Source: an uncultured Actinomycetes bacterium (GTDB lineage: Bacteria > Actinomycetota > Thermoleophilia > UBA2241). Taken from it: 54,150 bases of DNA. The translations under genes were made by a program, and so were the position numbers. Shown piece by piece: positions 5,040 to 24,188 of the stretch. Position 1 is the first letter of the stretch. Each line of letters begins with the position of its first letter. The notes below the pieces were generated by a model. It was not told where the DNA came from. It saw nothing but the letters and a program-made list of their open reading frames with translations, and searched no databases. The stretch spans positions 1 to 54,150 of the forward strand of contig CAVYCN010000005.1 in the NCBI GenBank assembly GCA_963767005.1, in the 5' to 3' direction.

Positions 5040-5260
5040 GCAGAGCACTTGGCCAGTTTGAGGACTCTTCTGCCGCGGCTCTTCGGAAGGAAGTCATTCG
5101 GAAGGGGCCAGCTCGGATAGCCGGCGCCGTGAGCAGCGCTCTTGAGGGCAGACAAGTGCTGGCGAGGGCCTGAACGGCCGCGGCCTCGCTATGTGCCAGT
5201 CAGGAACAGTCAGCCAGGGGCGAGTGGCCTGGGGGGAAGCCCCGGCACGGAAGGAGAAAC

Positions 5261-6772
5261 ATGGATCAGTTAGTCGAGACAGGCCGCTTCAACCTTCTCG
5301 AACCCTTCAAGCAGAACTACGGCACGATCCGCAACTTCGTCGACGGCGAGTGGGTCGAGCCCAAGACCGACCGCTACCTCGACATCATCAACCCCGCCAC
5401 GGCAGCGCCATCGGCAAGGTGCCGCTGACCACCAAGACCGAGACCGACAAGGCCATCAAGGCCGCCCACGACGCCTACTGGGACTGGCGCTCCACGCCGC
5501 CGATCGTGCGGGCGCGCTACATGTTCAAGATCAAGGCGCTCCTCGACAAGCACCACGAGGAGATCGCCCGCATCACCACGCAGGAGCACGGCAAGGCGAT
5601 CGACGAAGCCCGCGGCGAGACCCTGCGCTCGATCGAGAACGTCGAGACGGCGGCCGGCATCACCAGCCTGATGATGGGCTACAACCTCGAGGACGGCGCC
5701 GCCAAGAACATCGACGAGACCGTCGTGCGCCAGCCGCTCGGCGTCTTTGCCTGCGTCAGCCCCTTCAACTTCCCCGGCATGGTGCCGTTCTGGTTCTGGC
5801 CCTACGCCGTGGCCAGCGGCAACACCTTCGTGATCAAGGTCTCCGAGCAGACCCCGCTCACCCTCACGCGCACCTTCGAGATCCTGCAGGACGCCGACCT
5901 GCCCGACGGCGTGCTCAACCTGGTGCACGGCGACAAGGAAGCCGTCGACGCCATCCTCGACAGCCCGCTGGTCAAGGGCGTCACGTTCGTCGGCTCGACG
6001 CCGGTCGGCAAGTACATCTACGCCCGCTGCGGCGCAGACCGGCAAGCGCGCCATCGTGCCAGGCCGGCGCCAAGAACTTCCTCACCGTCATGCCCGACGC
6101 CGAGATCGACCGCTCCACCGGCAACATGATGGCCTTCGTTCTTCGGCTGCACCGGCCAGCGCTGCCTGGCCGGCGCCAACCTCATGGCCGTGGGCGACAT
6201 CTACGAGGAGCTCAAAGAGAAGTTCGTCGCCGCCGCCGAGCCGCTCAAGGTCGGCCCCGGCCTCGACGAGTCGGTCAACATGGGCCCGATCATCTCCCAG
6301 CAAGAGCCTCGAGCGCGTGCACGGCTACATCGAGCATGGCCGTCAAGCAGGGCGCCACGGTGCTGCTCGACGGCCGCGACGTCGTCGTGCCGGGCTTCGA
6401 GGGCGGCTACTACATCGGGCCGACCGTGCTCGACAACGTCACCCCCGACATGACCCACGCCCAGGAGGAGATCTTCGGGCCGGTCGCCTCGATCATCCGC
6501 GTCAAGGACTTGGACGAGGCGATCAAGATCACCAACGCCTCGCCCTTCGGCAACGCCGCCTAGCATCTACACCACGAGCGGCCGCAGCGCGCGCACGTTC
6601 TGGTACAAGGTCCAGGCCGGCAACATCGGCGTGAACCTGGGCATCGCCGCCGCCATGGCCTACTTCCCGTTCGCCGGCCAGAAGGACTCGTTCTTCGGCA
6701 CGATGCACGGCCAGGGCAAAGACGCGGTGCAGTTCTTCACCGACTCGCAAGGTCGTCATCACCCGCTGGTAG
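5261..6772 (+). CDS. mmsA: CoA-acylating (methyl)malonate-semialdehyde dehydrogenase (several indels)
   Basis: RBS AAGGAG. Motifs '[17 protein letters not shown]...[13 protein letters not shown]', '[12 protein letters not shown]', 'AKNF', 'GQRCLA', 'EEIFGP' and '[25 protein letters not shown]', typical of the MMSDH/IolA family. Confidence 0.88.
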
Positions 6773-6801
6773 GCGCGGGGCGACCGACAAAGGAGAGAGA
6801 C

Positions 6802-7251
6802 GTGGCTCGACAGTTCCCCGAGATCGTGGCCTACGGCTCGGCCTTCCGCTTCGCCCTGGAGGCCGAGGAGGCGTGCGCCGACCTCGCCGCCGCCGCCGAC
6901 GCCCTGGCGCCCGACGGCGCCTGGCAGGCCAAGCTCGAGGAGCTCGCCTGCGCGCCATCGCGACCGCGTCGAGAAGCTCACCGTGATCCGCCAAGAGGTC
7001 AACGAGATGATCCTCGAGCCGATCCACTCGCTCGACGGCGCGGCCTACCTCGGCGCCCTCGACGCAGGACCCGGCGACCACCTGGCCGGCCGTCGTCGAG
7101 CAGCTCATCGCCGCCGAAGAGCGACGCGGCGCGCTACCACGACGACTTCGTCGCGCAGTGCGAAGACGTGCTGGCCGCCAGCGCGCGCGCCTTCAAGAAG
7201 GCCGCCAAGCAGGACCGGGCGGCGGCCGACGAGCTGCGAGGGATGCTTTGA
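6802..7251 (+). CDS. Small ferritin/rubrerythrin-like helical protein (frameshifted)
   Basis: RBS AAGGAG before GTG. Reconstructed sequence '[11 protein letters not shown]...LEELACAHRDR...[11 protein letters not shown]...IAAEE.AARYH' shows the paired E..E/H helix pattern of ferritin-like bundles. Confidence 0.55.
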
Positions 7252-7255
7252 CCTT

Positions 7256-7430
7256 GATGGCAAGTGAAGTGTCGCTTCGGATGGAAGGTATGGCGGTCAT
7301 AGCCCCCATACGACCGCCCGCCCACGCCGAAGCGGCTAGGGGAGATTTGCCGTCTGGATCGTTGGATTCAGGATCTCCCTGCCTCCCAGGAAGCGGCCCC
7401 GGCCCGTCAGCCGCCCGGGGCCGCTTCTCT
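7256..7430 (+). ncRNA. Structured intergenic RNA / 5' leader of the aminotransferase (IS110 left-end-like)
   Basis: Nested stems 7256-7265/7345-7354, 7272-7280/7327-7335 and 7292-7298/7312-7318, plus a 13-bp hairpin 7390-7402/7415-7427 followed by TCTTT. Confidence 0.55.
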
Positions 7431-7488
7431 TTGAGTCAACCGAAGATCGCGGCGCGCATCGCGTACCGATGAGTGAAAGGCAGGCAGC

Positions 7489-8786
7489 ATGGGTGTCCAG
7501 GACCAGTACCGCGACTACGTCATGACCGGCTTCGTCAAGCGCATCGAGCCGGTCGTGGTCGACCACGGCGAGGGCGCCAGGCTCTACGACGCCGACGGCA
7601 AGGAGTACGTCGACTGCTTCGCCGGCATCTCGGTGACCAACGCCGGCCACCACAACGCGGCCATCCTCGAGGCCGCCAAGGCCCAGGCCGACAAGATCGT
7701 CCACGCCTGCAGCTACGTCTACTACGTGCCCACCGTCGGCGAGCTGGCCGAGAAGCTCGCCGAGGTCACCCCCGGCAAGCTGCAGAAGACCTTCTTCTGC
7801 AACTCCGGCGCCGAGGCCAACGAAGGCGCCATGCGCCTCGCCAAGCGCTACTCGGGCCGCTGCGAGTTCGTGGCCCTCGAGTCGAGCTTCCACGGGCGCA
7901 CCTACGCGACCCTCTCGATCACCGGCAACTCGGGCCGCAAGAAGGGCGGCGGCCCCTACATGCCGGGCGTCGCCTTCACCGTCACGCCGTACTGCTACCG
8001 CTGCCCGCTCGGCCTCGAAGAGGAGACCTGCGGTCTGGCCTGCGCCGAGCGCGTGCGCGAGGTCGTGCGCCTGCACCTGTCGGGCGAGTGCTGCGCCTTC
8101 ATCGCCGAGCCGGTGATGGGCGAGGGCGGCATCATCGTGCCGCCGGCCGGCTACTTCAAGGCCGTCAAGAAGATCCTCGACGACGAGGGCATCCTCTTCA
8201 TCGCCGACGAGGTGCAGAGCGGCTTCGGGCGCACCGGCAAGCTGTTTGCCATCGAGCACTACGGCGTGGAGCCCGACATCATCACCATGGCCAAGGGCAT
8301 CGCCGACGGCTGGCCGCTGGGCGCCTTCATCGGCCCGCGCCGAGATCGCCGACTCCTTCCAGGTCGGCGACCACCTCTCGACCTTCGGCGGCAACCCGGT
8401 GAGCTGCGCCGCCTCGCTCGCCAACATCGACTTCATGCAGAAGACCGACCTGCCCGGCCAGGCGCGCGGCCAAGGGCGAGAAGCTCATGGCGCGCTTCCG
8501 CGAGCACGCCGCCCACGAGCCGCTGATCGGCGAGGTGCGCGGCAAGGGCCTCATGATCGGCATCGAGCTCGTCAAGGACCGCGAGACCAAGGCCTACGCC
8601 ACGGCCGAGGCCGGCTTTGTGCGCAACTACTGCCTCGAGCACGGCGTGCTGATCGGCGTGGGCGGCAACTTCGGCAACGTGCTGCGCCTGCAGCCGCCGC
8701 TGGTGATCGACGACGCCGAGCTCGACACGGTGTTCGCCACCGTGGCCGAGGCCATCGAAGCGGCGCGCACGACCGTTCGGGCGTAG
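7489..8786 (+). CDS. Class III PLP-dependent aminotransferase (GabT/omega-amine transaminase family), frameshifts near 8335-8470
   Basis: 'LYDADGKEYVDCFAGI', 'NSGAEANEGA', 'SFHGRT', 'FIADEVQSGFGRTG', 'DIITMAKGIA', 'STFGGNP', 'VRGKGLMIG', 'VLRLQPPL'. Confidence 0.93.
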
Positions 8787-8921
8787 CAGCGAGGTTGAAT
8801 GAGCCTCGACTGAGGTTGAGAGGTGCGGGAGTGCAGGCTCCACTACGTTGCCGTAGCCAGACTAACAGGCGATTTCCGCTCAGTGAATAGCGCTTTGATC
8901 AAGCCACCCCGGAGGGGCGCC

Positions 8922-10850
8922 TTGGACTTCTACAAGGGCAGCGTGCTCAGGGTCGACATGACCTCCAGGACGGCCGACGTCGAGCCGCTCAACATGGAGT
9001 GGGCACGCCTGTACGTCGGCGGGAAGGGCCTGATGCTCCGCTATCTGTGGGAGCTGACCGAGCCGGGCATGGACCCCTGGTCGCCCGAGAATCCGCTGAT
9101 CGTCGTGCCGGGACCGTTCGCCGGCACCAACGTGAGCACCTGCTCGCGGGTGGTGCTGGGCGGCAAGAGCCCGTAACGGCATGATTCTCGACAGCTACTG
9201 CGGCGGCTCGTTGGTCATCTAAGTTCGCCGGCTACGACATGATCATCGTGCAGGGCTGCGCCGCCGAGCCACCACCAACGTGAGCACCTGCTCGCGCGTC
9301 GTGCTCGGCGGCAAGAGCCCCGCCAGCGGCACCATCCTCGACAGCTACTGCGGCGGTTCGTTCGGCTCGATCATCAAGTTCGCCGGCTACGACATGATCA
9401 TCGTCCAGGGGTGCGCGCCCGAGCTCACGGCGGTGCTGATCAAAGACGACCAGGTCAGCTTCGTGCCGGCCGCCAAGTACGCCGGCATGCTGACCGCCGA
9501 GCATCGAAGCCACGCTGCGCGCCGACTTCGATCCGCGCATGACTCACTGTCGATCGGCCCCGCCGGCGAGTACAAGCTGCCCTGGGCCTGCGTGTCGAAC
9601 GACCAGTACCACAAGGCCGGGCGCGGCGGCACCGGCGCCCTGATGGGCTCCAAGAACCTCAAGGCGATCGCCGTGGCCGGCACCGGCCGCGTCGAGGTCG
9701 GCGACGCCCGTGCGTTCCTCGAAGACGTCGAGCGCATCGACACCGACTACATCCTCACCGACGCCAACTACTGGGTCCACGAGGAGGGCACGCCCGGTGC
9801 TCGTCGACGCCACCAACGGCGCCGGCTGCCAGCCCACGCGCAACTACGCCGAGGGCACGTTCGAGGGCGCCGGCAAGATCGACTCCGAGGCGTTCCAGAA
9901 GATCCGCGTCAAGAAGCGCGCCTGCTACCAGTGCACGCTGGCCTGCCGCAACTTCCACCGCATCAACGACGTCGAGGGCGAGGGCCCCGAGTACGAGACG
10001 ATCGCTCTGTGCGGCTCGAACTGCGGCATCGACGACATCGCCGCCCTCATGGAGTTCAACCACCTCTGCGACGAGTACGGCCTCGACACCATCTCGACCG
10101 GCAACGTGCTCGGTCTGGCCATGGACCTGACCGAGAAGGGCATCCACGATTTCGGCGTGCGCTTCGGCGACGTCGAGGCCTACCTCAAGATCCCCGAGCA
10201 GCTCGCGCACGCGCACCGGCATCGGCGCCGAGCTCGCCATGGGCACGCGCGCCCTGGCCGCGAAGTACGGCCACTCCGAGCTGGGCATGCAGGTCAAGGG
10301 CCTCGAGGCGCCCGGCTACGACCCGCGCGGCTCGTTCGGCATGAGCATCGCCTACGCCACCTCAGACCGCGGCGCCTGCCATATGCGCTCGTTCCCGATC
10401 GGCGTCGAGATCGTCGAGGGCACCATGCCGGCCGACACGCTCGACGAAAGCAAGGCCGAGTTCAACGTCAACTTCCAGAACCACTACGCCTTCAAGTTCT
10501 GCGGCATCTGGTGCGACTTCTGGGCGATCGACTACGAGCAGATGGGCATGCTGATGAAGCACCTCTGGAGGCGCGACGTCAGCGAAGAGGAGATGACCCA
10601 GCGTCGGTGAGCGCGTCTGGAACCTCGGGCGCCTGTTCAACCTGCGCGAGGGCTACAAGGGCCGACGACGAGCGTGCCCGAAGCCTGGCTCGAGAAGCCG
10701 TTCACCAAGGGCGTCTCGGCGGGCAAGACGATCGGCACGGCGCGCTTCAACGAGGTCCTGGCCGAGTACTACGCCCTGCGTGGCTGGGACGAGAACGGCG
10801 TACCCACCGAGGCCAAGCTCACCGAGCTCGGCATCGACGTGCGGCTCTAG
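8922..10850 (+). CDS. aor: Aldehyde:ferredoxin oxidoreductase (W/Mo-bis-pterin AOR family) 1, with frameshifts and an internal duplication
   Basis: 'YVGGKGL', 'KSP...DS.CGG.FG..IKFAGYD', 'IGPAGE', 'GRGG.GALMGSKNLKAI', 'CYQC.LAC', 'EGPEYET', 'CDEYGLDTISTG', 'VKGLEAPGYDPR', 'ATSDRGACH', 'YY.LRGWDENGVPT'. Confidence 0.92.
9125..9424 (+). repeat. Imperfect tandem duplication of about 150 bp inside aor1
   Basis: Copy 1 (9125-9269) and copy 2 (9273-9424) both encode TNVSTCSRVVLGGKSP...KFAGYDMIIVQGCA.E. Confidence 0.9.
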
Positions 10851-10937
10851 GCCGTCGACCGACTACGTCGTCGCCGCTCGGCTGGCGTGACTACGTTGTG
10901 CGCCAGTGACTGACACGCGGCGAGAAAGGGACTGAAG

Positions 10938-11441
10938 ATGCCTCACGTGATGATCAGCAGCAAGAAGTGCACCGGCTGCCACATGTGCGAGCTCGGTTGC
11001 TCGGCGTGGCACGAAGGCGGCTTTCAGCCGTCGCGCGCCCGGCTGTTCGCCGACGTCAACCCGACCACCGCGGTGATCAAGGGTCATACCTGCCTGCAGA
11101 CCGGCTGCGCCAAGTGCGAGGCGGCCTGCACCAACGGCGCCATCGTACGACGCACCGTCGCCGTCACCCCGGCCGGCGCCTTCGCCAGCAAGGAGAAGGT
11201 CGGCGACTCGGTGACCGGCGTCGTGCTCGTCGTCGACGAGGACAAGTGCACGAACTGCGGTGACTGCTACGACGTGTGCCCCTACGGCGTGATCCACGAG
11301 CACCCCGAGCGCAAGGTGGCATTCAAGTGCGACCTGTGCGACGGTGACCCGCAGTGCATCGCGTTCTGCCAGAACCAGTACGTCCTGGCGGTCGACCTCA
11401 AGGTCGACAAGGCCGATCGCGCGCTCACGGTCGAGGTCTGA
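10938..11441 (+). CDS. 4Fe-4S dicluster/polyferredoxin protein (likely AOR electron-transfer subunit)
   Basis: CTGCHMCELGC, CLQTGCAKCEAAC, CTNCGDCYDVCP, KCDLCDGDPQC..FC. Confidence 0.93.
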   Translation: MPHVMISSKKCTGCHMCELGCSAWHEGGFQPSRARLFADVNPTTAVIKGHTCLQTGCAKCEAACTNGAIVRRTVAVTPAGAFASKEKVGDSVTGVVLVVDEDKCTNCGDCYDVCPYGVIHEHPERKVAFKCDLCDGDPQCIAFCQNQYVLAVDLKVDKADRALTVEV

Positions 11442-11502
11442 GGGTCGGCACGGCGAGAGCGGGGTGTCTCGTGGGCGCAGGCCTGGGTCCTGTGCGAGTG
11501 AC

Positions 11503-12057
11503 GTGAGCGGGGCCGGCTCAGCGGCGCAGCAGAGTGGCGGCGGCCGGCCGGGCCACCATCGCGCGCGGCACAACCAGAGCAACCCGAGCCACCTGCGCGT
11601 GCCGGCGCCGGCCAGCGTGGCCACGCCGTCCGGCCTGCACCCCGAGGGGCGAATCTGGCTGCAGGAGCGCGGTCTGCGGGTCTTCGGACCGGGCGCCCAG
11701 GAGCTCCTGCGCCGCGTCGACGAGACCGGCTCGCTCAACCAGGCCGCCAAGGACATGAAGATGGCCTACAGCAAGGCATGGCGCATGGTCGGCGAGATCG
11801 AACAGGGGCTTGGCGTGAACCTGCTCGAGCGCCAGACCGGAGGGGCGGTCGGCGGCGGCTCCCGGCTGACCGCCGAAGGCAGGCTGGTGCTCGAGCGGTT
11901 CGATGCGTTCCTGCGCGACGTCGACGGCATGCTCGAGACGCTCTTTCGCCGGCACTTCTCCGATCTCTCCTACGGAGGGACGCCGGCCGACACGTCCGAC
12001 GCCGAAGAGCGCCGAAGCGCTCCCAACGAACAACGGGGACCCTGGCGTGGGGTCTGA
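11503..12057 (+). CDS. ModE N-terminal-type winged-helix regulator (start uncertain)
   Basis: 'VFGPGAQELLRRVDETGSLNQAAKDMKMAYSKAWRMV..IEQGLG..LLERQTGG..GGGSRLT'. No TOBE domain follows. Confidence 0.88.
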   Translation: MSGAGSAAQQSGGGRPGHHRARHNQSNPSHLRVPAPASVATPSGLHPEGRIWLQERGLRVFGPGAQELLRRVDETGSLNQAAKDMKMAYSKAWRMVGEIEQGLGVNLLERQTGGAVGGGSRLTAEGRLVLERFDAFLRDVDGMLETLFRRHFSDLSYGGTPADTSDAEERRSAPNEQRGPWRGV

Positions 12058-12252
12058 CGTCCGGCGCCGTCCGTCCGCTTCCACTGCGGCGAATCGCTCG
12101 CCGCGGCGCCGGAGCGAGCGCGGTCCGGGGCGCCCTTCGCATAAGATGTCCGCGACGACGTGCTTCGGCACGCGCGGCTCGTGGCGCAGCGCGGCAAGGC
12201 CCGCTGTCGCCCGGACAGCGGACGCGTGATCGCGAGTCGGAAAGGAAGCGGC

Positions 12253-14001
12253 ATGGCGAACCTGCTCAGGATCGATCTTACCGCCGGCACGGTCACCCAG
12301 GAGACCATCCCGCCCGATCTCATCCGTGAGTACATCGGCGGCAAGGGCCTGGGCACGCACTACCTCGCGGCCGAGGTCGCTCCCGACGTTGGCGGGCTCG
12401 AGCCGGCCAACAAGCTGATCTTCGTGAACGGCCCGATCACCGGCACGACCATGTTCGGCAGCAACCGCTACGGCGTGCACTTCGTATCGCCGCTGACCGG
12501 CGGCTACGGCGAGTGCACCTCGGGCGGTCACGTCGCACCGCAGTTCGCGCGCAGCGGCTTTCGCGTGATGATCGTCGAGGGCGCGGCCGCCGAGCCCGTC
12601 TACCTCGAGATCTCCGAGGAGGGCGCCGTCATCCATCCGGCCGGCGACGTCTGGGGTCTCGACACCTACCGCGCCGAAGAGGCCCTGGTCGCGCGCCACC
12701 GTGAGCGCTTCCCCAAGGCGCAGGCCTGCGTCATCGGCCCGGCTGGCGAGAAGCTCGTGCGCTTCGCCTGCGTCGAGAACAACAAGTGGCACAGCCTGGG
12801 GCGCGGCGGCAGCGGCGCGGTCATGGGCTCCAAGAAGCTCAAGGGCATCGTGTTCCACGGCGACCAGAAGGTCGAGGTGGCACGCCCCGACGAGTTCAAG
12901 GCGCTCGTCAGGGACATGGCCGGGCGCGCCAAGGACGACGCCGGCGTGGCCGCCTACCGGCGCGGCGGCACCGTCAACATGGTGCGCACAATCAACGGCG
13001 TCAACGCCTTTCCCACCCGCTACTGGCGCAAGGGTCACCTCGACGACTTCGAGCCGCTCACCACCGAGGCCATGATCGAAGGCTACCTCGAGCACAACGA
13101 CGTCTGCCCACCCTGCCTGCTGCAATGCATCAAGCACAACGTGATCCGCGAGGGTCCGCACGCGGGCCTCGAGATCGACGGTCCCGAGTACGAGACGCTC
13201 TACGTCTTCGGCGGCCTGTGCGAGATCGTCGACTTCGGCCAGGTCATGCACCTGAACGACATCTGCGACCGCCTCGGCGTCGACACCATGACGGCCGGCA
13301 ACCTCTGCGCTCTGGCCATCGAGGCGTCGCGCCGCGGCCTGATCGACGCCGGCCTCGACTTTGGCGACGCCGACGGCGTCGCCGCGTTCCTCGAGTCGAT
13401 GTGCCTGCGCGACACCCCGCTCGGCGACCTGTTCGCCGACGGCGTGCTGCGCGTCGAGAAGGAGCTCGGGCTCGAGGGTGTGGCCGTGCACGTCAAGGGC
13501 ATGGAACCGGCCGGCTACGACCCGCGTTCGCTGCGCGGCATGGGCCTGGGCTTCTGCGCCACGTCGCGCGGCGCCTGCCACCTGCGGGCCACCTTCTACA
13601 AGGCTGAGCTCGCCGGTTTCAGCGACACCAACGTGCTCGAGGGCAAGGCGGGCGTCTACGTCGACTGGGAAGACCGCCTCTGCATCATGGACACCCTGAT
13701 CTTCTGCCGCTTCTACCGCGACCTCGTGCCGTGGCCGTACATCACCCAGGTCGTGAACGCCGCCATCGGCACCGACTACACTGAGGACGACCTGCACGCT
13801 TTGGCGGCCCGCATCATCACGGAATCGCATGCCTACAACGAGGCCCGCGGCTTCACGCCGCGCACCAAGGAACGGCTGCCCGCTTGGATCACTGAGCGCG
13901 CGACCGAGGACGAGCAGCACCTCACGGTGACCCAGGAGCAGATGGACTTCATGGTGAGCGACTACTACCGCGAGCGCGGCTGGGAGCCGCCGGAGCTGTA
14001 G
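12253..14001 (+). CDS. aor: Aldehyde:ferredoxin oxidoreductase 2 (intact)
   Basis: RBS GGAAAGGA. 'YIGGKGLG', 'SPLTGGYGEC.SGG', 'IGPAGEK', 'GRGG.GAVMGSKKLK', 'CPPCLLQC', 'GPEYET', 'HVKGMEPAGYDPR', 'RGACHL'. Confidence 0.95.
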   Translation: MANLLRIDLTAGTVTQETIPPDLIREYIGGKGLGTHYLAAEVAPDVGGLEPANKLIFVNGPITGTTMFGSNRYGVHFVSPLTGGYGECTSGGHVAPQFARSGFRVMIVEGAAAEPVYLEISEEGAVIHPAGDVWGLDTYRAEEALVARHRERFPKAQACVIGPAGEKLVRFACVENNKWHSLGRGGSGAVMGSKKLKGIVFHGDQKVEVARPDEFKALVRDMAGRAKDDAGVAAYRRGGTVNMVRTINGVNAFPTRYWRKGHLDDFEPLTTEAMIEGYLEHNDVCPPCLLQCIKHNVIREGPHAGLEIDGPEYETLYVFGGLCEIVDFGQVMHLNDICDRLGVDTMTAGNLCALAIEASRRGLIDAGLDFGDADGVAAFLESMCLRDTPLGDLFADGVLRVEKELGLEGVAVHVKGMEPAGYDPRSLRGMGLGFCATSRGACHLRATFYKAELAGFSDTNVLEGKAGVYVDWEDRLCIMDTLIFCRFYRDLVPWPYITQVVNAAIGTDYTEDDLHALAARIITESHAYNEARGFTPRTKERLPAWITERATEDEQHLTVTQEQMDFMVSDYYRERGWEPPEL

Positions 14002-14099
14002 CGGCGCGAGGGTCGCCGCGGCGCGTCGCCACGGCCGGCGAGGCGGCTGCTACAATCATCTGCGTCAAACCAGTCGCTCGCAGCACAAGGGGAGTCGTC

Positions 14100-14366
14100 G
14101 TGGCCAAGGTCCGCGTGAAGCTGCCGCTCGGGGTCACCTACCCCGACCCGCAGAAAGAGCTCGAATGCGAGGGCGGCACCGTCGAAGAGGCCCTCACCGC
14201 GGCGATCGCCGCCGAGCCTCGGCTCGAACCGCGCATCTACAAGGACGGCAGGCTCTACGTGGGCGTGTTCGTCAATGACCGCAACATCGCCCATCTGGGC
14301 GGTCTCACAGCGCCGCTCTCGGACGGAGATGTGATCCGCGTCCTGCCTCCCATCGCCGGAGGCTGA
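14100..14366 (+). CDS. moaD: MoaD/ThiS family ubiquitin-like sulfur carrier
   Basis: 88 aa, 'VFVND.NI..LGGL..PLSDGD.I.VLPPIAGG' with a C-terminal GG. TACAAT -10-like element at 14051-14056. Confidence 0.9.
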   Translation: MAKVRVKLPLGVTYPDPQKELECEGGTVEEALTAAIAAEPRLEPRIYKDGRLYVGVFVNDRNIAHLGGLTAPLSDGDVIRVLPPIAGG

Positions 14367-14405: not shown

Positions 14406-14771
14406 CTACGCGTGCTCGGCGTGGTCGCCGGGGACGGGCGGCCAGTCGGCGAAGTGCTTCATGTACAGCTTCTCGAGGTCACGATCGACGTCGGCCCGCA
14501 GCGCGTGAAAGCGACGCAGGAGCTCCTCGCCCTCGGGACTGAGTCGCGAGCCGCCGCCGTGCTCGCCGCCGATGCGACGCTCGAGCAGCGGAAAGCCCAG
14601 GCGCTCCTCGGCCGCGTGCAGCGTGCGCCAGGCCTTGTTGTACGACATGCCCATATGAGCGGCGGCACGGCTGAGCGAGCCCTCGGTGCCCACCAGGTCG
14701 AGCAGCGCGGCCGGCCCCTCACCGAACGCGCGCCCCCCGGCGTCGAGCCACAGTCGATACGCGAGTCGCAT
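14406..14771 (-). CDS. Second ModE N-terminal-type winged-helix regulator
   Basis: 'AFGEGPAALL..V...GSLSRAAAHMGMSYNKAWRTL...EERLGFPLLERRIGG..GGGSRL'. Confidence 0.9.
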   Translation of the reverse strand: MRLAYRLWLDAGGRAFGEGPAALLDLVGTEGSLSRAAAHMGMSYNKAWRTLHAAEERLGFPLLERRIGGEHGGGSRLSPEGEELLRRFHALRADVDRDLEKLYMKHFADWPPVPGDHAEHA

Positions 14772-14781
14772 GGCGCCCAGC

Positions 14782-15409
14782 CTACTCCTGCGCGAGCAGC
14801 CAGACGACCACTTCGCCCGGCCCGTGGACGCCGGTCACGTGGGTCGCCGCGATGTCCGACGTGCCGCTCGGCCCGCTGATCACGCTCACGCAGCTCGGGA
14901 GGGTGGCGGCAGGCGCGGCGGCGGCGGGCGGCGCAGCCGGCCCGCCGCCGCCCGACGGCGTTGCCCGTTCCGCGAGCGCGCGCAGCACGTCGCCGAGGCC
15001 GGCCACCAGCCGTGAAGCCGGCACGAAGAACGCGGCCACCGGCGGCAGCAGCGAGGTGCCGCGACGCACCGACGCACCGCTGCATACCACGACCCCGCCG
15101 GTCTCGGCGACGCCCCAGTCGGCCTCGCAGAGGCCGGCCTCAGCGTCGCGCGCCTCGTCGGTCCAGCGCCAGGGGGCGCCGTCCCAGCGCAGCGCCGGCG
15201 CGCCCGCCACTGCGCGCCAGCCGCGCTCGCCGGCGAGCCGCTCCAGGTCACGACGCGCCGCGGCCGTCGTGGCGACCACCGCGCCGGTGGCCCCGAGCTC
15301 GCCGAGGCGCTCGAGGAACAGGTCGACGAGCGCCGCCCGGTCGCGCCCGGTCGCTCTCGGCTCGACGGGAGAGCCAGCCGCAGGCGAGGGATCGACGGCC
15401 TGCCGTCAC
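14782..15409 (-). CDS. lutC: Lactate utilisation protein C (LUD domain), N-terminal frameshift
   Basis: 'ADWGVAETGGVVV......RGTSLLPP' and 'ISGPS.TSDIA.THVTGVHGP'; last gene of a lutABC arrangement. Confidence 0.85.
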
Positions 15410-16892
15410 CCCCGGCTCCCGGCCGTGCGGTGTCGTCGGGCGCGCGGCCTCGTCCCAGGCCGCCCGGAAGCTGCGCCCCTCGCCGCGCGGGAAGTCGCGC
15501 GTCGCGGGTCCAGGGGCCGAGCGGGCCGCGGCCGCGCAGGCGCGGCCCCGAGAGCGGCGCGCGCCGCAGCAGCGGCAGCGCGAGCCGCTCGAGCGCGCGC
15601 CACAGCCGCGGGCGCCGCGTGACCTCGGCGTACGCCGCAAGACCGGTGCCCCACGCCGGCGAGACCAACCCCTGCGCGACCGCGTCCTCGCGCAGCTCGC
15701 GGATCATCTCGGCCAGCGGGATGCGCGCCGAGCAGACCTCGGTGCAGGCGCCGCAGAGGCTGCTCGCGAAGGGCAGGTCGGGGTGGCGGTCGAGGCCCTC
15801 GAGCAGCGGGCTCAGCACAGCGCCGATCGGTCCCGGTGTAGACCGCGTCGTAGGCATGGCCGCCGATCTTGCGGTAGACCGGACAGACGTCGAGGCAGGC
15901 GCCGCAACGGATGCACGACAGGACCTGCTCGTAGCGGCCGCCGAGCAGGCGCGAGCGGCCGTTGTCGACGATCACGACGTGCAGCTCCTCGGGACCGTCG
16001 GCCTCGCCCGGGCGCCGCGGCCCGGTGATCGCGGTCACGTAGGCGGTCGTGCGCAGGCCCACGCCGGCGCGCGGCAGCACGCGCGAGGATGGCCTCGAGG
16101 TCGGGCAGCGCCGGCACCAGCCGCTCGACGCCCATGACCACCACGTGCGTGCGCGGCAGCGTGGTCGTCATGCGGCCGTTGCCCTCGTTCGTCACGAGCA
16201 CGATCGAGCCGCTCGCGGCGACCCCGAAGTTGGCGCCCGTGATGCCCATGTCGGCGGCCAGGAACTTGCCGCGCAGCACGTCGCGGGCGTAGCGCGTGAG
16301 CGAGGGCGGGTCGGCGCCGACGTCGCGGCCGGCGGCCGCCGAGAACAGCGCCCGGATGCGCTCGACCGACAGGTGGATCGCCGGCTTCAGAATGTGGAAC
16401 GGGCGCTCGCCGGAGAGCTGCACGATGTACTCGCCGAGATCGGTCTCGACGACCTCGGCGCCGGCCGCCTCGAGCGCCGGGTTGAGGCCGATCTCCTCGG
16501 TCACCATCGACTTGGACTTCACGACGCGGCGCACGCCGCGCTCGCGGGCGAGGCCGACCACGTGCTCGCGCGCCTCGGCCGCGTCGGCGGCGAAGAACAC
16601 GTGGCCGCCGGCCCGCTCGACGTTGTCGGCGAACTGCGCGACGTAGCGGTCGAGGTGGGCGAGCGTCTCGGCCCGCACGCGGGCGATCTCGTCGAGGGCC
16701 GCGTCCCACGCGGGCTCGGCTCGCGCCGGCGCGGCGAGCGCCTGCACGTAGTCCTGGCCGTCGCGCAGCACGGCGCTGCAGGGCGGCGTCGTCAAGCGCG
16801 CCTTCGACGCGCGCGTCAAAGCCGCGCCGCGACGCCGCCGCCCGCCGCCGGGCCTCGCCGCGCGTCGCCTTCAGATCGCGCGCGCCGCTCAT
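15406..16892 (-). CDS. lutB: LutB/LldF L-lactate oxidation iron-sulfur protein (frameshifted)
   Basis: 'VKSKSMVTEEI.LN', 'ETDLGEYIVQL..E.P.HI..PAIH', 'GITGANF', 'TNEGNGRM', 'CIRCGACLDVCPVY...GGHAY', 'SSLCGACTEVC'. Confidence 0.92.
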
Positions 16893-17714
16893 GGCGCACC
16901 TTCACGTCGTGCAGCGGGCCGCTCACCCCGCCACCCCGCGGCCAGCACCTCGGCGAGGTGGCGCACCTCGATCGCGCTGCCCCGCCGGCGCAGCCGGCCC
17001 TCGATGTTCAGCAAGGCAGCTCGCATCGAGCCCGACGAGCAGGTCGGCGCCCGATGGCGAGCACGTCGTCGACCTTCTCGTCGACCATCGCCGCCGAGAT
17101 GCGCGACATCTTCACGGCGAACGTGCCGCCGAAGCCGCAGCACAGCTCAGGGTGGACGAGCGGCACCAGCTTCGAGGCCGTCGACCATGCCGAGCAGGGC
17201 GAGCGGCTGCTCGGCCACGCCGAGCAGCCGCTGCGTGTGGCAGGAGTGGTGGAAGGTGGCGCGGCGGGCGCCCTGCGGGCGCCCGCCGCTCCGCCGGGCG
17301 CTCGCGGCGGCCAACGGTCGCGCCGGCCGGCCGCGGCCGTCACCGGCAGCTCCGTCACGCCGAGCACGTCGACCAGGAACTCGGAGAACTCGAACGTGCG
17401 GGCGGCAAGGTCGGCCGCGGCCTGCTCCTCGGGCCGGCCGGCGAACAGCCGCGGGTAGCCGTCGCGCACCATCGCCGTGCACGAGCCCGAGATCGAGACC
17501 ACGTGCTCGCTGCCGTCGAAGGCGCGCAGGAAAGCGCGGGCGCTGATGCGTGCCGCGTCGGCGTAGCCGGCGTTGTAGGCCGGCTGGCCGCAGCAGGTCT
17601 GGCCGGCGGGAAAGTCGACGGCGACGCCGAGCCGGCGCAGCACCTCGACGGCGGCCGGCCCACCCGCGGGAACAGCGCGTCGCCCAGGCAGGTGATCATG
17701 AGCGACGCGCGCAC
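16889..17714 (-). CDS. lutA: LutA/LldE cysteine-rich (CCG) Fe-S protein (frameshifted; start may be 17780)
   Basis: 'LMITCLGDALFP', 'QTCCGQPAYNAG', 'SGSC..MVR', 'HHSCH', 'LCCGFGGTFAVK', 'HLAEVL'. The stop overlaps the lutB ATG (ATGA). Confidence 0.9.
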
Positions 17715-18511: not shown

Positions 18512-19460
18512 CTACCCCAGCGAGAACCAGCGCTCGCGGCGCTCGAACAGGTAGCGGTCGGTCAGCAGGTTGAGGATCAGGCGGGCGTGACGGAAGTGCT
18601 CGGCGACGTAGCCGAGCGCCGGCGACAGGCCGAGCTCGCCGCCGGTCGCCTCCCAGGCAAGACCATAGGCACGCCGCCCGGCCCACTCCAGCAGGCGCAG
18701 ATCGCCCAGGTCGCCGGCGCCGCCGCTCGCCGCGCCACCTGCTCGAAGTCCGGCGCCATCCATCTCGTCGGCGCTCGACGGCGACGCGCCGCCGCCCACC
18801 GCGCGGCGCAGCCGGCCGGCGGCGATCGGGGTGAGCACACGGCCACCGGCGTGATCGGGGAACACGCCGGTCAGGAAGAGGGCGAGATCGCCCAGGCGCC
18901 GGTAGAGCGCGAGGCGCTCGTCAGGCGGCACCGACAGGATCAGCTCGGCGAACTGACGCCGGGTCGAGCTCGCTGAAACGCCGGTGGCGCCAGCCGCTGC
19001 GGCCCTTGACCCAGAGCGCGCCGCTGGCCACGTGCGTGTACGAGGCGAGCAGATCGGCCAGGAACAAGCGGCGCAGAGGCTCGGCGACGAACTCGCGCAA
19101 GGGGTCGATCTCGAACACCGGCACGACGCTGCGCCGGCCGACGCGCTCCGGCACGAAGCTCAGCCCGGCGAGCAGGGCCGGCGTGGCGGCGAGCAGCACG
19201 GCGAAGGCGAGGAAGGGACCGGCGGCGACGATCGGGTCGACGGCGGCCTGGCCCGCGACGGTCGGGTCCTCGCGAGCGCCGACGCCCTCGTAGAGCGCCG
19301 CGAAAACGTCGGGGCGGGCGAGCAGCTCCTCGATGTCGGCGGGCCGCTCGCGCAGGCGAGCGGCCCGCTCCTCGGCCGGGCCCGGCTCGCCGGCCAGCGC
19401 GGCGAGCAGCGCGAGGTCGCGATCGGAGAGCCGTTCGAGCAGGAGCAGATCGGCCAGCAT
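18512..19460 (-). CDS. Hypothetical protein (frameshift near 18950)
   Basis: Two overlapping ORFs with coding-like composition: 'FLADLLASYTHVASG..W....GWR.RRFSELDP' and 'LYRRLGDLALFLTGVFPD...ARLILNLLTDRYLF'. Confidence 0.7.
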
Positions 19461-19577: not shown

Positions 19578-20741
19578 GTGGACGCGCAGGACGGCATTCG
19601 CATCGGACAATCGTGCGCCGGCGAGGCGCGGGCCGCCGTCTGCGAGTTCCACGAGGCCGTCGACCAGCCCGACCTGGCGCTCGTCCTCTTCTTCTGCAGC
19701 GATGAGTACGACCTCGACGCCGTCGCCGCCGAGATGGCGGCGCGCTTCGGCGACGTGCCGGTGGTCGGCTGCACCACGGCCGGCGAGATCGGCCCGGCCG
19801 GCTGCCGCGAGCACAGCATCGCCGGAGTGAGCCTGGCGCGCTCGGCGTGCACGGCCGAGAGCGGCGGCGTCGAGCGGCTCCGGCAGTTCACCGCCGCCGA
19901 GGGGCGCGCGCTCGCCCGCGAGCTGCTCGACCGTCTCGACCGGCGCGCGCCGGCGGCCGACAGCCGCGGCCGCTTCGCCTTCATGCTCGTCGATGGCGAG
20001 TCGGTGCGTGAGGAGCCGGTCGCAGCCGCCTTTCAGGACGCGCTGGGCGACGTCACGCTGATCGGCGGCTCGGCCGGCAGCGGCCTGCGCTTCACGAGCA
20101 CCTTCGTCTACTTGGACGGCCGCTTCCGCTCAGACGCGGCGGTCCTGGTCGTGGCCGACACGCCGCTGCCCATCATGCCGTTCAAGACCCAGCATTTCGT
20201 GGCCACCGACGAGCGCCTCGTCGTGACCGAGGCCGACCCGCTGCGGCGCACCGTGAGCGAGATCAACGGCCTGCCGGCGGCGGCCGCGTACGCGCGCGCC
20301 CTCGGTGTGGCCGAGAGCGAGCTCGGCCCCAGCCGCTTCGCCTCGTCGCCGGTCGTCGTGCTGGTCGACGGCGGCAACTACGTGCGCTCGATCCAGCAGG
20401 CGAACCCCGACGGCAGCCTCACGTTCTTCTGCGCCATCGAGGCCGGCGTCGTGCTGCGCATGGCGCGCGGCGTCGACCTGGTCGCCAATCTCGAGGACGC
20501 CTTCGCCCAGGTACGGGCGCGCATCGGGGAGCCGCGCCTGGTGCTCACCTGCGACTGCATCCTGCGCCGGCTCGAGGTCGTCGAGGGCGGCCTGCAGGAC
20601 CGCGTCGACGAGATCCTCACGGCCAACAACGCGGTCGGCTTCAACACCTACGGCGAGCAGTTCTGCGGCGTGCACATCAACCAGACGCTCACGGCGATCG
20701 CCTTCGGCGCCGCGGCCGGCGAACCCGGCGCAGGCCGGTGA
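19578..20741 (+). CDS. FIST N/C-domain sensor protein, NosP-like
   Basis: 'LVLFFCS.EYDL', 'VVGCTTAGEIG', 'F..LVDG.S.REE', 'GGSAG', 'FKTQHF', 'EINGLPAA', 'YVRSIQ..NPDGSLTFFCAIE.G', 'CDCILRRLE', 'VGFNTYGEQF.G.HINQTLT'. Confidence 0.92.
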   Translation: MDAQDGIRIGQSCAGEARAAVCEFHEAVDQPDLALVLFFCSDEYDLDAVAAEMAARFGDVPVVGCTTAGEIGPAGCREHSIAGVSLARSACTAESGGVERLRQFTAAEGRALARELLDRLDRRAPAADSRGRFAFMLVDGESVREEPVAAAFQDALGDVTLIGGSAGSGLRFTSTFVYLDGRFRSDAAVLVVADTPLPIMPFKTQHFVATDERLVVTEADPLRRTVSEINGLPAAAAYARALGVAESELGPSRFASSPVVVLVDGGNYVRSIQQANPDGSLTFFCAIEAGVVLRMARGVDLVANLEDAFAQVRARIGEPRLVLTCDCILRRLEVVEGGLQDRVDEILTANNAVGFNTYGEQFCGVHINQTLTAIAFGAAAGEPGAGR

Positions 20742-22375
20742 GGCCGGTGGCTGGTGGAGGCCGCCACTCGACGGGCCCGGCGCCGGGCGCTCGACAGAGC
20801 GGGGCGTTCGCGCCGGGCGCGCGACGCAGCGGGGCACCCGCGCCCGGCGTCCGGAGTCGCAAGCCGAGGCCGACGCCCTGCGCGCCGAGGTCGCACGGCT
20901 CGAGGCCGAGGTCACGCGCCTGAACAAGGTGGTGCGCGTGCTCATGGACCGCGCCGAGTCGACGGCGAGCGCGCCGGCCACCGACTACGGCCTGTTCCAG
21001 ACCACGATCATGCTGCAGAACCAGGTGCGCCTGCGCACCGAGGAGGCGCGCGCCGCGCTACGCGGCGGCGAGGGCGCGGCCCTGGGCCGCAGCGACTCGG
21101 CGGCACGCGACATGCACGCCCTGCGGCGCACGGCCGCCCTGCAGATCCAGCTCCTGGAGCTCGTCGTGCAGCAGCGCGACCTGGGCGAGCTGATCGACCG
21201 GGTCGCCGACATCGTCGACGTGCCGATCGTGCTGTTCGACGCGCGCGGCCACGCCCTGCACCGCTCGCCGGCGGCGCGGCCCGGGCTCGACGAGCGGCTG
21301 TGGCACGTCTACGCCGGCCTGCGCGGCGCACGCAGCATGCCCGACTTCGTCGCAGGACGGCGACGACTGGATCGCGTTTCGCGACGTCACCGTGATGGAC
21401 CGCGTCGAGCGCGTGATCGCCGCCGTGGCCGCCCAGCCGCGCCGCACCGGCTTCACCGACGCCTCGCTGTCGTTCCTGCAGCAGCTCGCCATTCTCGACG
21501 CGCTGCATCACCGCACCGAGCTTGCCCAGGACCGGCGCGAGCGCGAGCGTCTGCTGCACGACCTGCTGACCGGCGCGCAGCCGGCCGCCGAGCTCGACGG
21601 CCGGCTGCACCAGCACGGCTTCGACGACGAGGCCGTCTGGCGAGTCGTGGTCGTCGAGACGGGCGCGGGGCGCGCCCGGTCGGGACCGGGCGCGCCCCGC
21701 GCCCCGCGCAATGCCGACGGCGGCGAGCCGCCCGCGCGCGAGCCCGTCGCCGCCCTGCAGCACGCCGTCGACGGCGTGCTCGGCCGGCGCCGCCTGTCGT
21801 TTCTCAGCGTGACGCTCGAGGGCCGTGCGGCGGCCCTGATCGCGCTGCCCGGCGAGAGCGGTGGCGCGGCGACCGGCACGCTGCTCGCCGAGCTGCGCGA
21901 GGCGGGCGCCCGCGCCGCCCCTGGCCCCGAGGTCGTCGCCGGCTGCTCGGCCCCGCTTGCCAGCGCGGCCGGCGGGCGGCGCGCCCTGCAGCAGGCGCTC
22001 GTCGCCTGCCTGGGCGCGCAACGCGACCCCGATAGCGGCGTCGCCGCCTTCGACGAGCTCGGCGGCCGGCTGCGCCTGCTCGACGGGCTCGACGCCGCGG
22101 CGCTGTCCGAGCTCGTGCGGCGCACGTTCGCGCCGCTGCTCGACTACGACGCCCACCACCGCACGCAGCTCTACGAGACGCTGCGCGTGCTCTTTGCCCG
22201 CCACCTCGCCGTGCAGGACACGGCGGGCGCGCTGCACGTCCACCGCAACACCCTGCAGCGCCGCCTGGCCCACGCCGAGCGGCTGCTCGGCATCGACCTC
22301 GACGACCTCGACGACGTGGTCGACGTGCGCCTGGCCTTCGACGCCGCCGAGCTGCTCGAGCGGCTGCCCTCCTAG
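20738..22375 (+). CDS. PucR/CdaR-family transcriptional regulator with an N-terminal coiled coil (frameshifts near 20860 and 21355)
   Basis: GTGA overlap with the FIST stop. Central 'RERLLHDLLTG'. C-terminal 'PLLDYD.HHRTQLYETLRVLF......TA.ALHVHRNTLQRRL...E.LLGIDL' HTH. Confidence 0.88.
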
Positions 22376-22449
22376 CGCTTCCGGCCGGCGCGACCCCGGC
22401 CGGCGCGGCTCCCCCGGCCTGCGCGCTCCCGCCCGACGCCGTACCCGCC

Positions 22450-22500
22450 AGCGTCCAACCCCGTGCGCGCTAGCGTCCAACGCCGTGCGCGCTAGCGTCC
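22450..22500. repeat. 22-bp tandem repeat (about 2.3 copies) upstream of the ALDH
   Basis: AGCGTCCAAC(C/G)CCGTGCGCGCT twice, then AGCGTCC. Confidence 0.85.
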
Positions 22501-22682
22501 GGCATGGTGCACGCGACCACACCAGCGCCCAAAGTGTGGTCGCGTGGTGCCTCCCGTCATGGTGCATTGTGCCTCATCGTTTGCGACAAGCCCGTCGCCG
22601 GCGGCGCACGTCTGGGGAGGCGCGAGCCCGACCGGCAATGGGCACAGGGGAGCCCCGCTCCACCCAAGCGAAGGAGAGAGCC

Positions 22683-24188
22683 ATGGCTATGGTAGTCGAC
22701 AAGGAGACGCAGGCGCCGAAGGTGACCGACGAGAGCTACGGCCTGTTCATCGACGGGACGTGGCGCCCGGCGTCGACCGGCAAGACCTTCAAGGCGTACA
22801 ACCCCGGCAACGGCGAGCTCCTGGCCACCTGCGCCGACGCGAGCCGCGAGGACGTCGCGGTAGCCGTCAAGGCGGCCTGGAAGGCCTACGAGAGCTGGAA
22901 GAAGGTCAGCCCCCAGGAGCGCTCGCGCGCGCTGCTGCGCATCGCCGACCTGATCGACGCAAACGCCGCCAAGCTCGCCATGGTCGAGACCCTCGACAAC
23001 GGCAAGCCGATCCGCGAGACCACGGCGATCGACGTGCCGCTCGCCTCGGACCACTTCCGCTACTTCGCGGGAGCGGTGCGCACCGAGGAAGGCCAGGCCG
23101 TCATGATCGACGACGACACGCTCAGCATCATCCTGCGCGAGCCGATCGGCGTCGTCGGCCAGATCATCCCCTGGAACTTCCCGTTCCTGATGGCCGCCTG
23201 GAAGATCGCCCCGGCCCTGGCCGCCGGCGACTGCGTGGTCATCAAGCCGTCGTCGACCACGTCGCTGTCGCTGCTCGAGCTGGCCAAGCTGCTGCAAGAG
23301 GTGCTGCCGGCCGGCGTCGTCAACGTGATCACCGGCACCGGCTCGGGCGCCGGCAACTTCATGCTCGAGAACGAGGGCTTCAGCAAGCTCGCCTTCACCG
23401 GCTCGACCGAGGTCGGCTACACGGTGTCCGACGCGGCCGCCAAGAAGCTGATCCCCGCCACCCTCGAGCTCGGCGGCAAGTCGGCCAACATCTTCTTCCC
23501 CGACGCGCCCTGGGAGAAGGCGATCGAGGGCCTGCAGCTCGGCATCCTGTTCAACCAGGGCCAGGTGTGCTGCGCCGGCTCGCGGGCCTTCGTCCACGAG
23601 GACATCTACGACAAGTTCATGGCCGCGGCCGTGAAGGCGTTCAAGCAGGTCACGGTCGACCTGCCCTGGAAGCAGGCCACGCAGATGGGCGCCCTGGTCA
23701 ACGAGAGCCAGATGGAGAAGGTGCTGGGCTACGTCGAGGTCGGCCAGCGCGAGGGCGCGACCGTCGCCACCGGCGGCGTGCGCATCACCGACCGCGGCCT
23801 GGGCGCCGGCTGCTTCATCGAGCCGACCATCCTGTCCGACGTCGACAACGACATGCGGGTCGCCCAGGAGGAGATCTTCGGACCCGCCGTGTGCGTCATC
23901 AAGTTCCGCAGCGAGGACGAGGTCATCCGCCTGGCCAATCAGAGCGAGTACGGCCTGGGCGGCGCGGTCTGGACGAAGGACGTCAACCGCGCCTTCCGCG
24001 TGGCGCGCGGCGTCGAGACCGGCCGCATGTGGGTCAACAACTACAACAACCTGCCGGCCCACGCCCCCTTCGGCGGCTACAAGAAGTCGGGCATCGGCCG
24101 CGAGACCCACAAGATGATGCTCGAGCACTACTCGCAGAAGAAGAACATCTTCATGAGCTTCACCGAGACCAAGGTCGGGATGTACTGA
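22683..24188 (+). CDS. NAD(P)-dependent aldehyde dehydrogenase (AcoD/AldA-like family)
   Basis: RBS AAGGAG. 'GQIIPWNFP', 'FTGSTEVG', 'LELGGKS', 'FNQGQVCCAGSR', 'QEEIFGP', 'PFGGYKKSGIGRETH'; intact. Confidence 0.96.
   Translation: MAMVVDKETQAPKVTDESYGLFIDGTWRPASTGKTFKAYNPGNGELLATCADASREDVAVAVKAAWKAYESWKKVSPQERSRALLRIADLIDANAAKLAMVETLDNGKPIRETTAIDVPLASDHFRYFAGAVRTEEGQAVMIDDDTLSIILREPIGVVGQIIPWNFPFLMAAWKIAPALAAGDCVVIKPSSTTSLSLLELAKLLQEVLPAGVVNVITGTGSGAGNFMLENEGFSKLAFTGSTEVGYTVSDAAAKKLIPATLELGGKSANIFFPDAPWEKAIEGLQLGILFNQGQVCCAGSRAFVHEDIYDKFMAAAVKAFKQVTVDLPWKQATQMGALVNESQMEKVLGYVEVGQREGATVATGGVRITDRGLGAGCFIEPTILSDVDNDMRVAQEEIFGPAVCVIKFRSEDEVIRLANQSEYGLGGAVWTKDVNRAFRVARGVETGRMWVNNYNNLPAHAPFGGYKKSGIGRETHKMMLEHYSQKKNIFMSFTETKVGMY

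Follow-up and report, generated by a model that had tools for sequence, protein, structure and literature searches.

A FIST protein co-encoded with a NahK-type helix on a PucR-type regulator: a candidate kinase-free variant of NosP signalling upstream of aldehyde-oxidation genes

Three consecutive genes in a 54,150-nt stretch of DNA (the window) encode a stand-alone FIST protein resembling NosP, a PucR/CdaR-type transcriptional regulator and an aldehyde dehydrogenase (ALDH). The window is contig C5 of G000, a 3.4-Mb genome of approximately 71% GC and 100% completeness whose relatives are Thermoleophilia. The TGA stop codon of the FIST gene (20739-41) overlaps the GTG start codon of the regulator (20738-40) in a GTGA sequence, and the regulator begins with a two-helix module related to the N-terminus of NahK, the kinase partner of NosP. 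A first-pass annotation, made from the sequence of the window, had reported the complete FIST gene, the overlap, the PucR helix-turn-helix (HTH) and the intact ALDH gene, all of which are seen in Pfam matches and coordinates (Table 1), and the N-terminal string that it quoted for the regulator was located from 20884 onward. We conclude that the FIST-regulator pair is real and conserved, and that it represents a variant of NosP signalling, restricted to one lineage, whose output is a DNA-binding protein.

Table 1. Features of the FIST-regulator-ALDH locus in window coordinates.
Feature	Position	Strand	Remarks
NosP-like FIST sensor, 387 aa	19578..20741	+	Pfam FIST 35-231, FIST_C 234-362
PucR/CdaR-type regulator	20738..22375	+	two frames in the assembly; intact orthologue P0001 in G226
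NahK-type N-terminal two-helix module, ~62-65 aa, predicted FIST-binding segment	20884..21069	+	
GAF/roadblock-like domain	~21110..21530, spans second indel	+	fold match, Z 11-13, model residues ~115-253; no Pfam match
Degenerate GGDEF-like domain PF17853	21578..22006	+	Pfam E 1.4e-7
PucR C-terminal helix-turn-helix PF13556 (HTH_30)	22169..22342	+	Pfam E 6.3e-17
Candidate operator and promoter	22506..22580	+	conserved between regulator and target
13-bp inverted repeat	22510-22522 / 22534-22546	+	11-nt spacer
-10-like CATCGT	22575-22580	+	
Shine-Dalgarno sequence of ALDH, GGAGAGAG	22673-22680	+	
NAD(P)-dependent aldehyde dehydrogenase, 501 aa, ExaC-related	22683..24188	+	Pfam Aldedh E 1.6e-167

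The relationship of the regulator N-terminus to NosP-associated kinases, which the first-pass annotation had proposed, was confirmed in two ways. The NCBIfam model NF041831 (NahK/ErcS′) matches the N-terminus of the regulator only, over model positions of about 2-126 (for the segment in the window, E is 6e-7), and homology to this part was assigned over positions of about 2-77; the scores are 26-28 bits against a cut-off of 1500, the regulator being without kinase and receiver domains. A profile built from 22 non-actinobacterial (proteobacterial) kinase N-termini scored the window helix at 82.4 bits (E 3.2e-23), the next of 39,751 six-frame genome segments reaching 8.8 bits. When the N-terminal 166 aa of the regulator were used as a query, 127 proteins were matched, and 107 of the best 111 of these were longer than 450 aa and had a PucR HTH. 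The kinase-only profile matched all 107 of these full-length regulators, each with no less than 44.7 bits, and reported none of 16 ordinary PucR paralogues, a test by which a non-specific coiled-coil match was rejected. The kinases used for it had themselves been collected by means of a profile that started from these loci, and it is therefore the NCBIfam match that counts as independent evidence. The invariant residues of the helix in the regulators are those of the kinases and cyclases. The helix had no Pfam match in the scans made and gave low scores only (0.76) in the ESM Atlas; a search of 400 other genomes from across the phylum did not find it.

The helix is closely tied to FIST genes whatever output it precedes. 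In a scan of genomes from several phyla, in which we analyzed the best 80 of 107 confirmed helix loci, a FIST gene lies directly upstream of the helix gene in 79, and the outputs behind the helix are PucR (21), kinase (24) and GGDEF/EAL (35). The exception, L149, encodes a helix-bearing kinase, and its upstream open reading frame is membrane transporter-like as judged by eye. Likewise, the helix gene is the next gene after NosP at 25 of 25 NosP loci of the class, and FIST is upstream at all 41 helix-bearing metagenome loci with upstream sequence (43 loci, 2 of which are cut by the contig start). Of 21 junctions examined, 20 have the partner start codon in frame and overlapping the stop codon of FIST. 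In a protein library clustered at 50%, 1101 proteins carry the helix at E 0.001; from the best 150, we scanned the domains of 106 new ones of at least 190 aa and found GGDEF/EAL proteins, kinases, PAS fragments, one SpoIIE phosphatase and one HisKA_2 kinase, with 13 lacking a match and two having transporter pieces that are probably miscalls. P0144 and P0248 exemplify the SpoIIE/SiaA-like phosphatase and HisKA_2 kinase outputs of the helix. Four proteins (P0243, P0244, P0247, and P0255) look like fusions of FIST, helix and output, but they may be read-through gene calls and were not used as evidence. The module is thus portable, as the first-pass annotation had proposed, and heads kinases, GGDEF/EAL proteins, SpoIIE proteins and PucR proteins. 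It is a mark of NosP partners irrespective of output and the obvious candidate for the means by which NosP reaches its kinases. G000 has a single FIST gene and a single helix-bearing gene, and no helix-bearing kinase partner was found in it.

In the class, helix-bearing regulators occur at 15 loci in 13 other genomes (301 searched), each directly behind a FIST gene, a recurrence that speaks against a chance arrangement. The fusion is intact in relatives, which bears out the earlier description of a FIST-docking helix grafted onto a PucR/CdaR DNA-binding protein. P0001, the intact 509-aa orthologue in the same-genus reference genome G226, served for comparison with other PucR proteins. Sixteen paralogues align to it only from about residue 104-113, and the five that were scanned all carry PF07905 before the same junction, a domain absent from P0001 and P0027. 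As judged from these alignments, the helix stands in place of the normal PucR input domain PF07905. The helix-bearing regulators form one clade among the paralogues (SH-aLRT 100; 20 + 14 rows, two paralogues being dropped where the junction motif was not found), and the 20 PucR-coupled FIST proteins group with three GGDEF-coupled FIST proteins of Thermoleophilia (SH-aLRT 100, quick tree), both trees being midpoint-rooted only. Together, these sequence comparisons point to a single origin as probable, and it is likely that one recombination in a Thermoleophilia FIST-helix-GGDEF operon placed a PucR core behind the helix. Extra cysteines at FIST residues 76 and 363 (alignment A5) are present in 20/20 PucR-coupled proteins and in a minority of others; they are mostly present in the three GGDEF-coupled proteins too and may be lineage marks.

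The model of P0001 (pLDDT 78.6) consists of a disordered leader, two helices (residues 31-65 and 72-100, at a low confidence of pLDDT about 50-70), a GAF/roadblock-like domain, a GGDEF-like domain and the HTH, with Rv2242 (9f80) and BAD_0249 (3onq) as best fold matches; in the window, the GGDEF-like and HTH domains share the frame 21352-22375. No kinase or receiver domain was detected in the regulator by domain scans or fold matches. The linker between helix and GAF-like domain varies between 12 and 15 residues, whereas kinase partners have a continuous coil. A variable linker is one reason to ask whether the regulator could be a self-sufficient one-component activator that senses through its GAF-like domain, the helix serving only to oligomerize it and the FIST protein being a passenger or constitutive scaffold. 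The helix does occupy the PF07905 position of its relatives, GabR is octameric (PMC7652997), and a single origin could by itself account for the linkage to FIST. However, the invariant helix residues have been kept while the regulators diverged to about 50% identity, FIST is never lost where upstream sequence exists (15/15, 21/21, and 41/41), and L149, a kinase, is the only one of the best 80 helix proteins without a FIST gene upstream. We therefore regard a self-sufficient regulator as improbable.

The genes that follow the regulator are strongly biased toward aldehyde oxidation. Downstream DNA is available for 20 of the 21 PucR loci of the genome scan, and in these the next gene encodes an ALDH in 8 and a ferredoxin followed by aldehyde:ferredoxin oxidoreductase (AOR) in 12. 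At the metagenome loci the next gene is an ALDH in 8/28, a ferredoxin(-AOR) in 17/28 and another gene in 3/28, so that an aldehyde-type gene comes next at 20/20 and 25/28 loci, respectively. The FIST, helix-PucR and ALDH order suggested for a synteny search was thus found to recur, with AOR as an alternative to ALDH. The best NCBIfam match of the window ALDH is ExaC (NF050026), at 613 bits and short of the cut-off of 900; ALDHs of two other loci reach 893 and 895 bits, and the window enzyme is 48% identical to the ExaC-like ALDH of other loci. With two ALDH types this distant and an AOR that is unrelated to them, the targets point to a shared class of substrate. In the loci of the class, a ThiS/MoaD-like gene comes after AOR, and in most of them NuoE/F-like genes come next. 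At L034-L041 the ferredoxin-AOR-MoaD genes precede NuoE/NuoF/NuoG-N-like genes, clusters that we take to resemble NAD-coupled, possibly electron-bifurcating AOR. Within the window itself, a cluster of alcohol/aldehyde redox genes lies 5-15 kb upstream (4161-14366) and comprises an iron-type alcohol dehydrogenase (best match to the ErcA model, partial), an ALDH in four pieces that resembles methylmalonate-semialdehyde dehydrogenase, a class III aminotransferase, a fragmented AOR, ferredoxin-like and ModE-like genes, a second intact AOR and a MoaD-like gene.

Between the regulator and its target lies a conserved site with the pattern GTGCACGCGACCA-N15/16-AGTGGTCGC, usually followed by GACTCG and CATNNT at a fixed distance. 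It is present in 23 of the 24 intergenic regions used for the model, the lone motif-free region (L109) having been taken too short on account of a frameshifted regulator, and in all 28 metagenome loci with room for it, whichever enzyme follows. Across 26 distinct elements the boxes of the repeat have mean identities of 0.85 and 0.82, versus 0.33-0.36 in flank and spacer, and CATNNT is found at a fixed 40-41 nt in 23/25. The window copy has GCCTCC where others have GACTCG. In G000 the site is the single strong match (E 4.7e-15, next 0.17), with no further operator site. The strict pattern was matched at 8 places in the 301 genomes, each of them at one of these loci, against one control match, and missed the G000 copy. 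An RNA terminator was rejected as a reading of the inverted repeat, there being 25 mismatches versus 1 compensatory change (175 inner-pair cells) and no T run in 25/25; neither a sigma-70 consensus promoter nor a terminator was revealed by a simple scan. In the window, a direct repeat of about 21 nt occurs twice immediately before the operator (22453-22500); it is absent from G226.

The regulator gene is disrupted in the assembly. Alignment to G226 indicates that the gene has lost one base at 20769/20770 and gained one at 21351, and that the window carries an in-frame 30-nt insertion. The first-pass annotation had correctly called two indels, at about 20860 and 21355; the first is actually about 90 nt from the position it gave. 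As assembled, the GTG is out of frame with the helix, and translational coupling therefore exists only in the corrected gene. Cleaved reading frames such as these could mean that the regulator is a true pseudogene in this strain, or that the fusion is an assembly artefact, and that the system is dead here; the read-level comparison comes from near strains rather than this one. In short-read contigs of near strains, however, the base at 20769 is present (run X2, one contig) and the extra base at 21351 is absent (runs X1 and X2, one contig each). Moreover, neighbouring genes of the window show comparable isolated 1-nt indels relative to G226, although of 11 genes tested genome-wide nine are whole, the two split ones both lying on the window contig. 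The FIST gene, the inverted-repeat site and the ALDH gene are all intact, as is the regulator in G226 and in 107 full-length relatives. The two frameshifts are thus likely assembly errors, and a dead system, which would in any case concern this strain alone, seems very improbable.

We propose that FIST would bind the NahK-type helix in the N-terminal part of the regulator translated together with it, and would thereby control the regulator's predicted activation of the downstream aldehyde-oxidation genes without a phosphorelay. The HTH would bind the inverted repeat and activate the promoter just downstream, as GabR does, and, by analogy with the inhibition of its kinase by heme-bound NosP, FIST may hold the regulator off until the signal comes. 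Considering the parts separately, physical binding of FIST to the helix is predicted and seems quite likely; binding of the HTH to the inverted repeat with activation of the adjacent promoter, predicted from the analogy with GabR, seems very likely. The model as a whole, in which the signal is most likely an aldehyde, is in our judgment probable.

Several observations weigh against this model or narrow it. The PucR-type loci are confined to one family of uncultured genomes (13/55 members, 0/245 in the rest of the class), and the three sets of loci (class, genome scan and metagenome) overlap and share ancestry, such that their counts are not independent. The window regulator is broken as assembled and other copies are split too (L042, L043/L109, L073, L083, and L093). 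The regulator retains a GAF-like domain that could itself bind an inducer, and the window FIST scores 430.5 bits on the NCBIfam NosP model (NF041558), below the cut-off of 450. At three metagenome loci (two of them near-identical) a Mrp/NuoL-NuoB-NuoH-NuoI complex comes first instead of an aldehyde gene, the operator site being present there as well. FIST-helix loci of other output types lack a consistent aldehyde context: 59 such loci had 0 ALDH and 2 AOR matches within 4 kb, and 105 neighbour proteins scanned (of 167 called at 43 loci) were a mixed set including 2 aldo/keto reductases. As to the Mrp/NuoL genes, one also follows AOR in two other loci, and this type of complex is possibly an energy-conserving partner of aldehyde oxidation. 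Membrane complexes with a Mrp/NuoL-like subunit of about 1030 aa, NuoB, NuoH and NuoI were observed at L192:3195-8009, L193:5726-10170, L177:7524-9626 and L169:5873-8005.

What FIST senses is the least certain part. The first-pass annotation had left the choice between nitric oxide (NO)/heme and an aldehyde; the gene context leans more to the second than to NO. An aldehyde-related signal is favoured because of the target genes and because nosP-nahK of Pseudomonas is placed in the alcohol-oxidation (ped) cluster. An aldehyde or a close derivative may well be the signal, at slightly under an even chance; NO, heme or redox is a more tentative possibility, and anything else is doubtful. In the same wiring, FIST could be a heme/NO (or redox) sensor that gates the operon, for instance to protect iron-sulfur and tungsten or molybdenum enzymes, while the retained GAF-like domain of the regulator reads any aldehyde. 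This alternative must be taken seriously, as characterized NosP proteins are reported to bind heme and NO and to regulate kinases. The FIST proteins conserve C65, H206, C327, E360 and H366, with H206 in 74/75, H366 in 75/75, C327 in 73/75 and E360 in 74/75 sequences; ALAD and ferrochelatase genes are present in the genome, and the targets are mostly iron-sulfur-rich AOR complexes. Four of the 25 matches in the class pass the NosP cut-off, two of which are PucR-coupled orthologues from G140 (454.7 and 454.3 bits). Protection of iron-sulfur enzymes would not, however, explain the NAD-dependent ALDHs, and no NO-detoxifying gene was recognised beside the annotated PucR-type loci. No copper nitrite reductase was found in G000, other NO sources not having been searched; one COX1-family match was obtained there. 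The Pseudomonas nosP-nahK genes also lie within an alcohol/aldehyde oxidation cluster (PMC12997753), and the NosP-paired kinase of Pseudomonas is reported to modulate alcohol responses (PMC12551699). Altogether, we consider heme/NO gating of the operon unlikely, and an aldehyde-related signal remains the one favoured by context.

A structural route to aldehyde sensing can be imagined. The AlphaFold2 model of FIST (pLDDT 93.9) has the human FBXO22 FIST domain as its nearest solved fold (Z 19.5, rmsd 3.3, 266 aligned), followed by chorismatase (11.9) and barbiturase (10.2); sequence searches of the PDB gave no relative of FIST or the regulator, and one weak unrelated match. In FBXO22, C326, aided by E362, is reported to form reversible aldehyde adducts, the aldehydes being synthetic degraders. 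FIST has C327 and E360, also late in the sequence and at similar spacing. The correspondence of the two pairs is suggested by spacing and modelled fold only, and FBXO22 FIST is described as having no obvious pocket; both points count against an aldehyde-binding FIST. The fold relationship of FBXO22 FIST to chorismatase and barbiturase is already published. That NosP-type FIST proteins in general sense aldehydes via Cys327/Glu360 and signal through one portable helix to any output (kinase, cyclase, phosphatase, or transcription factor) appears doubtful at present. If it were true, the operon described here, having no kinase, would be its simplest instance, and the presence of an "NO sensor" inside the alcohol-oxidation cluster of Pseudomonas would be explained.

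Other genes of the window were noted in passing. LutABC-like genes (CCG, LUD) and a ModE-like regulator lie on the minus strand at 14406-17655, with several 1-nt indels relative to G226, in which LutB and LutC are apparently fused. The gene divergent from FIST (18518-19460, minus strand) is frameshifted and has counterparts at L031:4793-5749, L161:2784-3668 and L078:1583-2632; at ALDH-type loci this divergent gene encodes 295-350 aa, and the copies scanned had no Pfam or NCBIfam match. In several loci a gene of 109 aa follows or replaces it.

On its input side the system resembles NosP-NahK, and on its output side GabR/CdaR; it is neither NahK nor a PF07905-type PucR. The NosP-NahK pairs (PA1975-PA1976/ErcS′ of P. 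aeruginosa, PP_2663-PedS1 of P. putida) and NosP-NosK-NosR of Burkholderia likewise have a FIST gene that stands alone and is co-transcribed with the partner gene, the NahK partner starts with a homologous helix (the N-terminus of NF041831), and the Pseudomonas pair shares its alcohol/aldehyde oxidation cluster with exaC (PMC12997753). For the ped-cluster pair, that review brings up NO "rather than (or in addition to)" alcohols, and the docking segment may already be visible in its Fig. 3e, where PedS1 and PP_2663 are modelled together with AlphaFold; NosP is also reported to bind NosK in a two-hybrid assay (PMC12570481). Here, in contrast, the partner lacks kinase and receiver domains and has a DNA-binding HTH at its C-terminus, and the output is the local operon rather than a phosphorelay or cyclic di-GMP. 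PucR/CdaR activators (B. subtilis PucR, PutR, and AdeR; E. coli CdaR; C. glutamicum GabR) share the GGDEF-like and HTH_30 domains, an adjacent catabolic target and an inverted repeat just upstream of the promoter, GabR binding such repeats just upstream of the -35 (PMC7652997), but differ in that here the NahK-type helix replaces PF07905 and a FIST gene is obligately upstream. EtnR1/EtnR2 of the actinobacterium Mycobacterium NBB4 is likewise kinase-free, with a separate sensor, a GAF-bearing CdaR/PucR-type DNA-binding protein and adjacent catabolic genes (PMC11197473); its sensor is a MEDS domain and its inducer an epoxide, whereas the sensor here is FIST. FBXO22 is reported to bind a transcription factor, BACH1, directly, although it is only 13% identical and is a ubiquitin-ligase adaptor. 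The comparisons also draw on PMC8846402, PMC13654575, PMC11208438, PMC13316043 and PMC12889525, and on the preprints 10.64898/2026.09.07.749794, 10.1101/2025.08.29.673087, 10.1101/2023.11.01.564830, 10.1101/2024.06.03.594717 and 10.1101/2025.09.24.678285. No description of the FIST-regulator pair or of the helix was found in the literature searched, the original NosP and FIST papers being outside its scope.

As a two-protein system with one promoter, this pair would allow the ligand of FIST to be read from a reporter. What FIST domains sense, be it NO, heme or small carbonyls, thus becomes directly testable, and the system could yield a portable aldehyde or NO biosensor.

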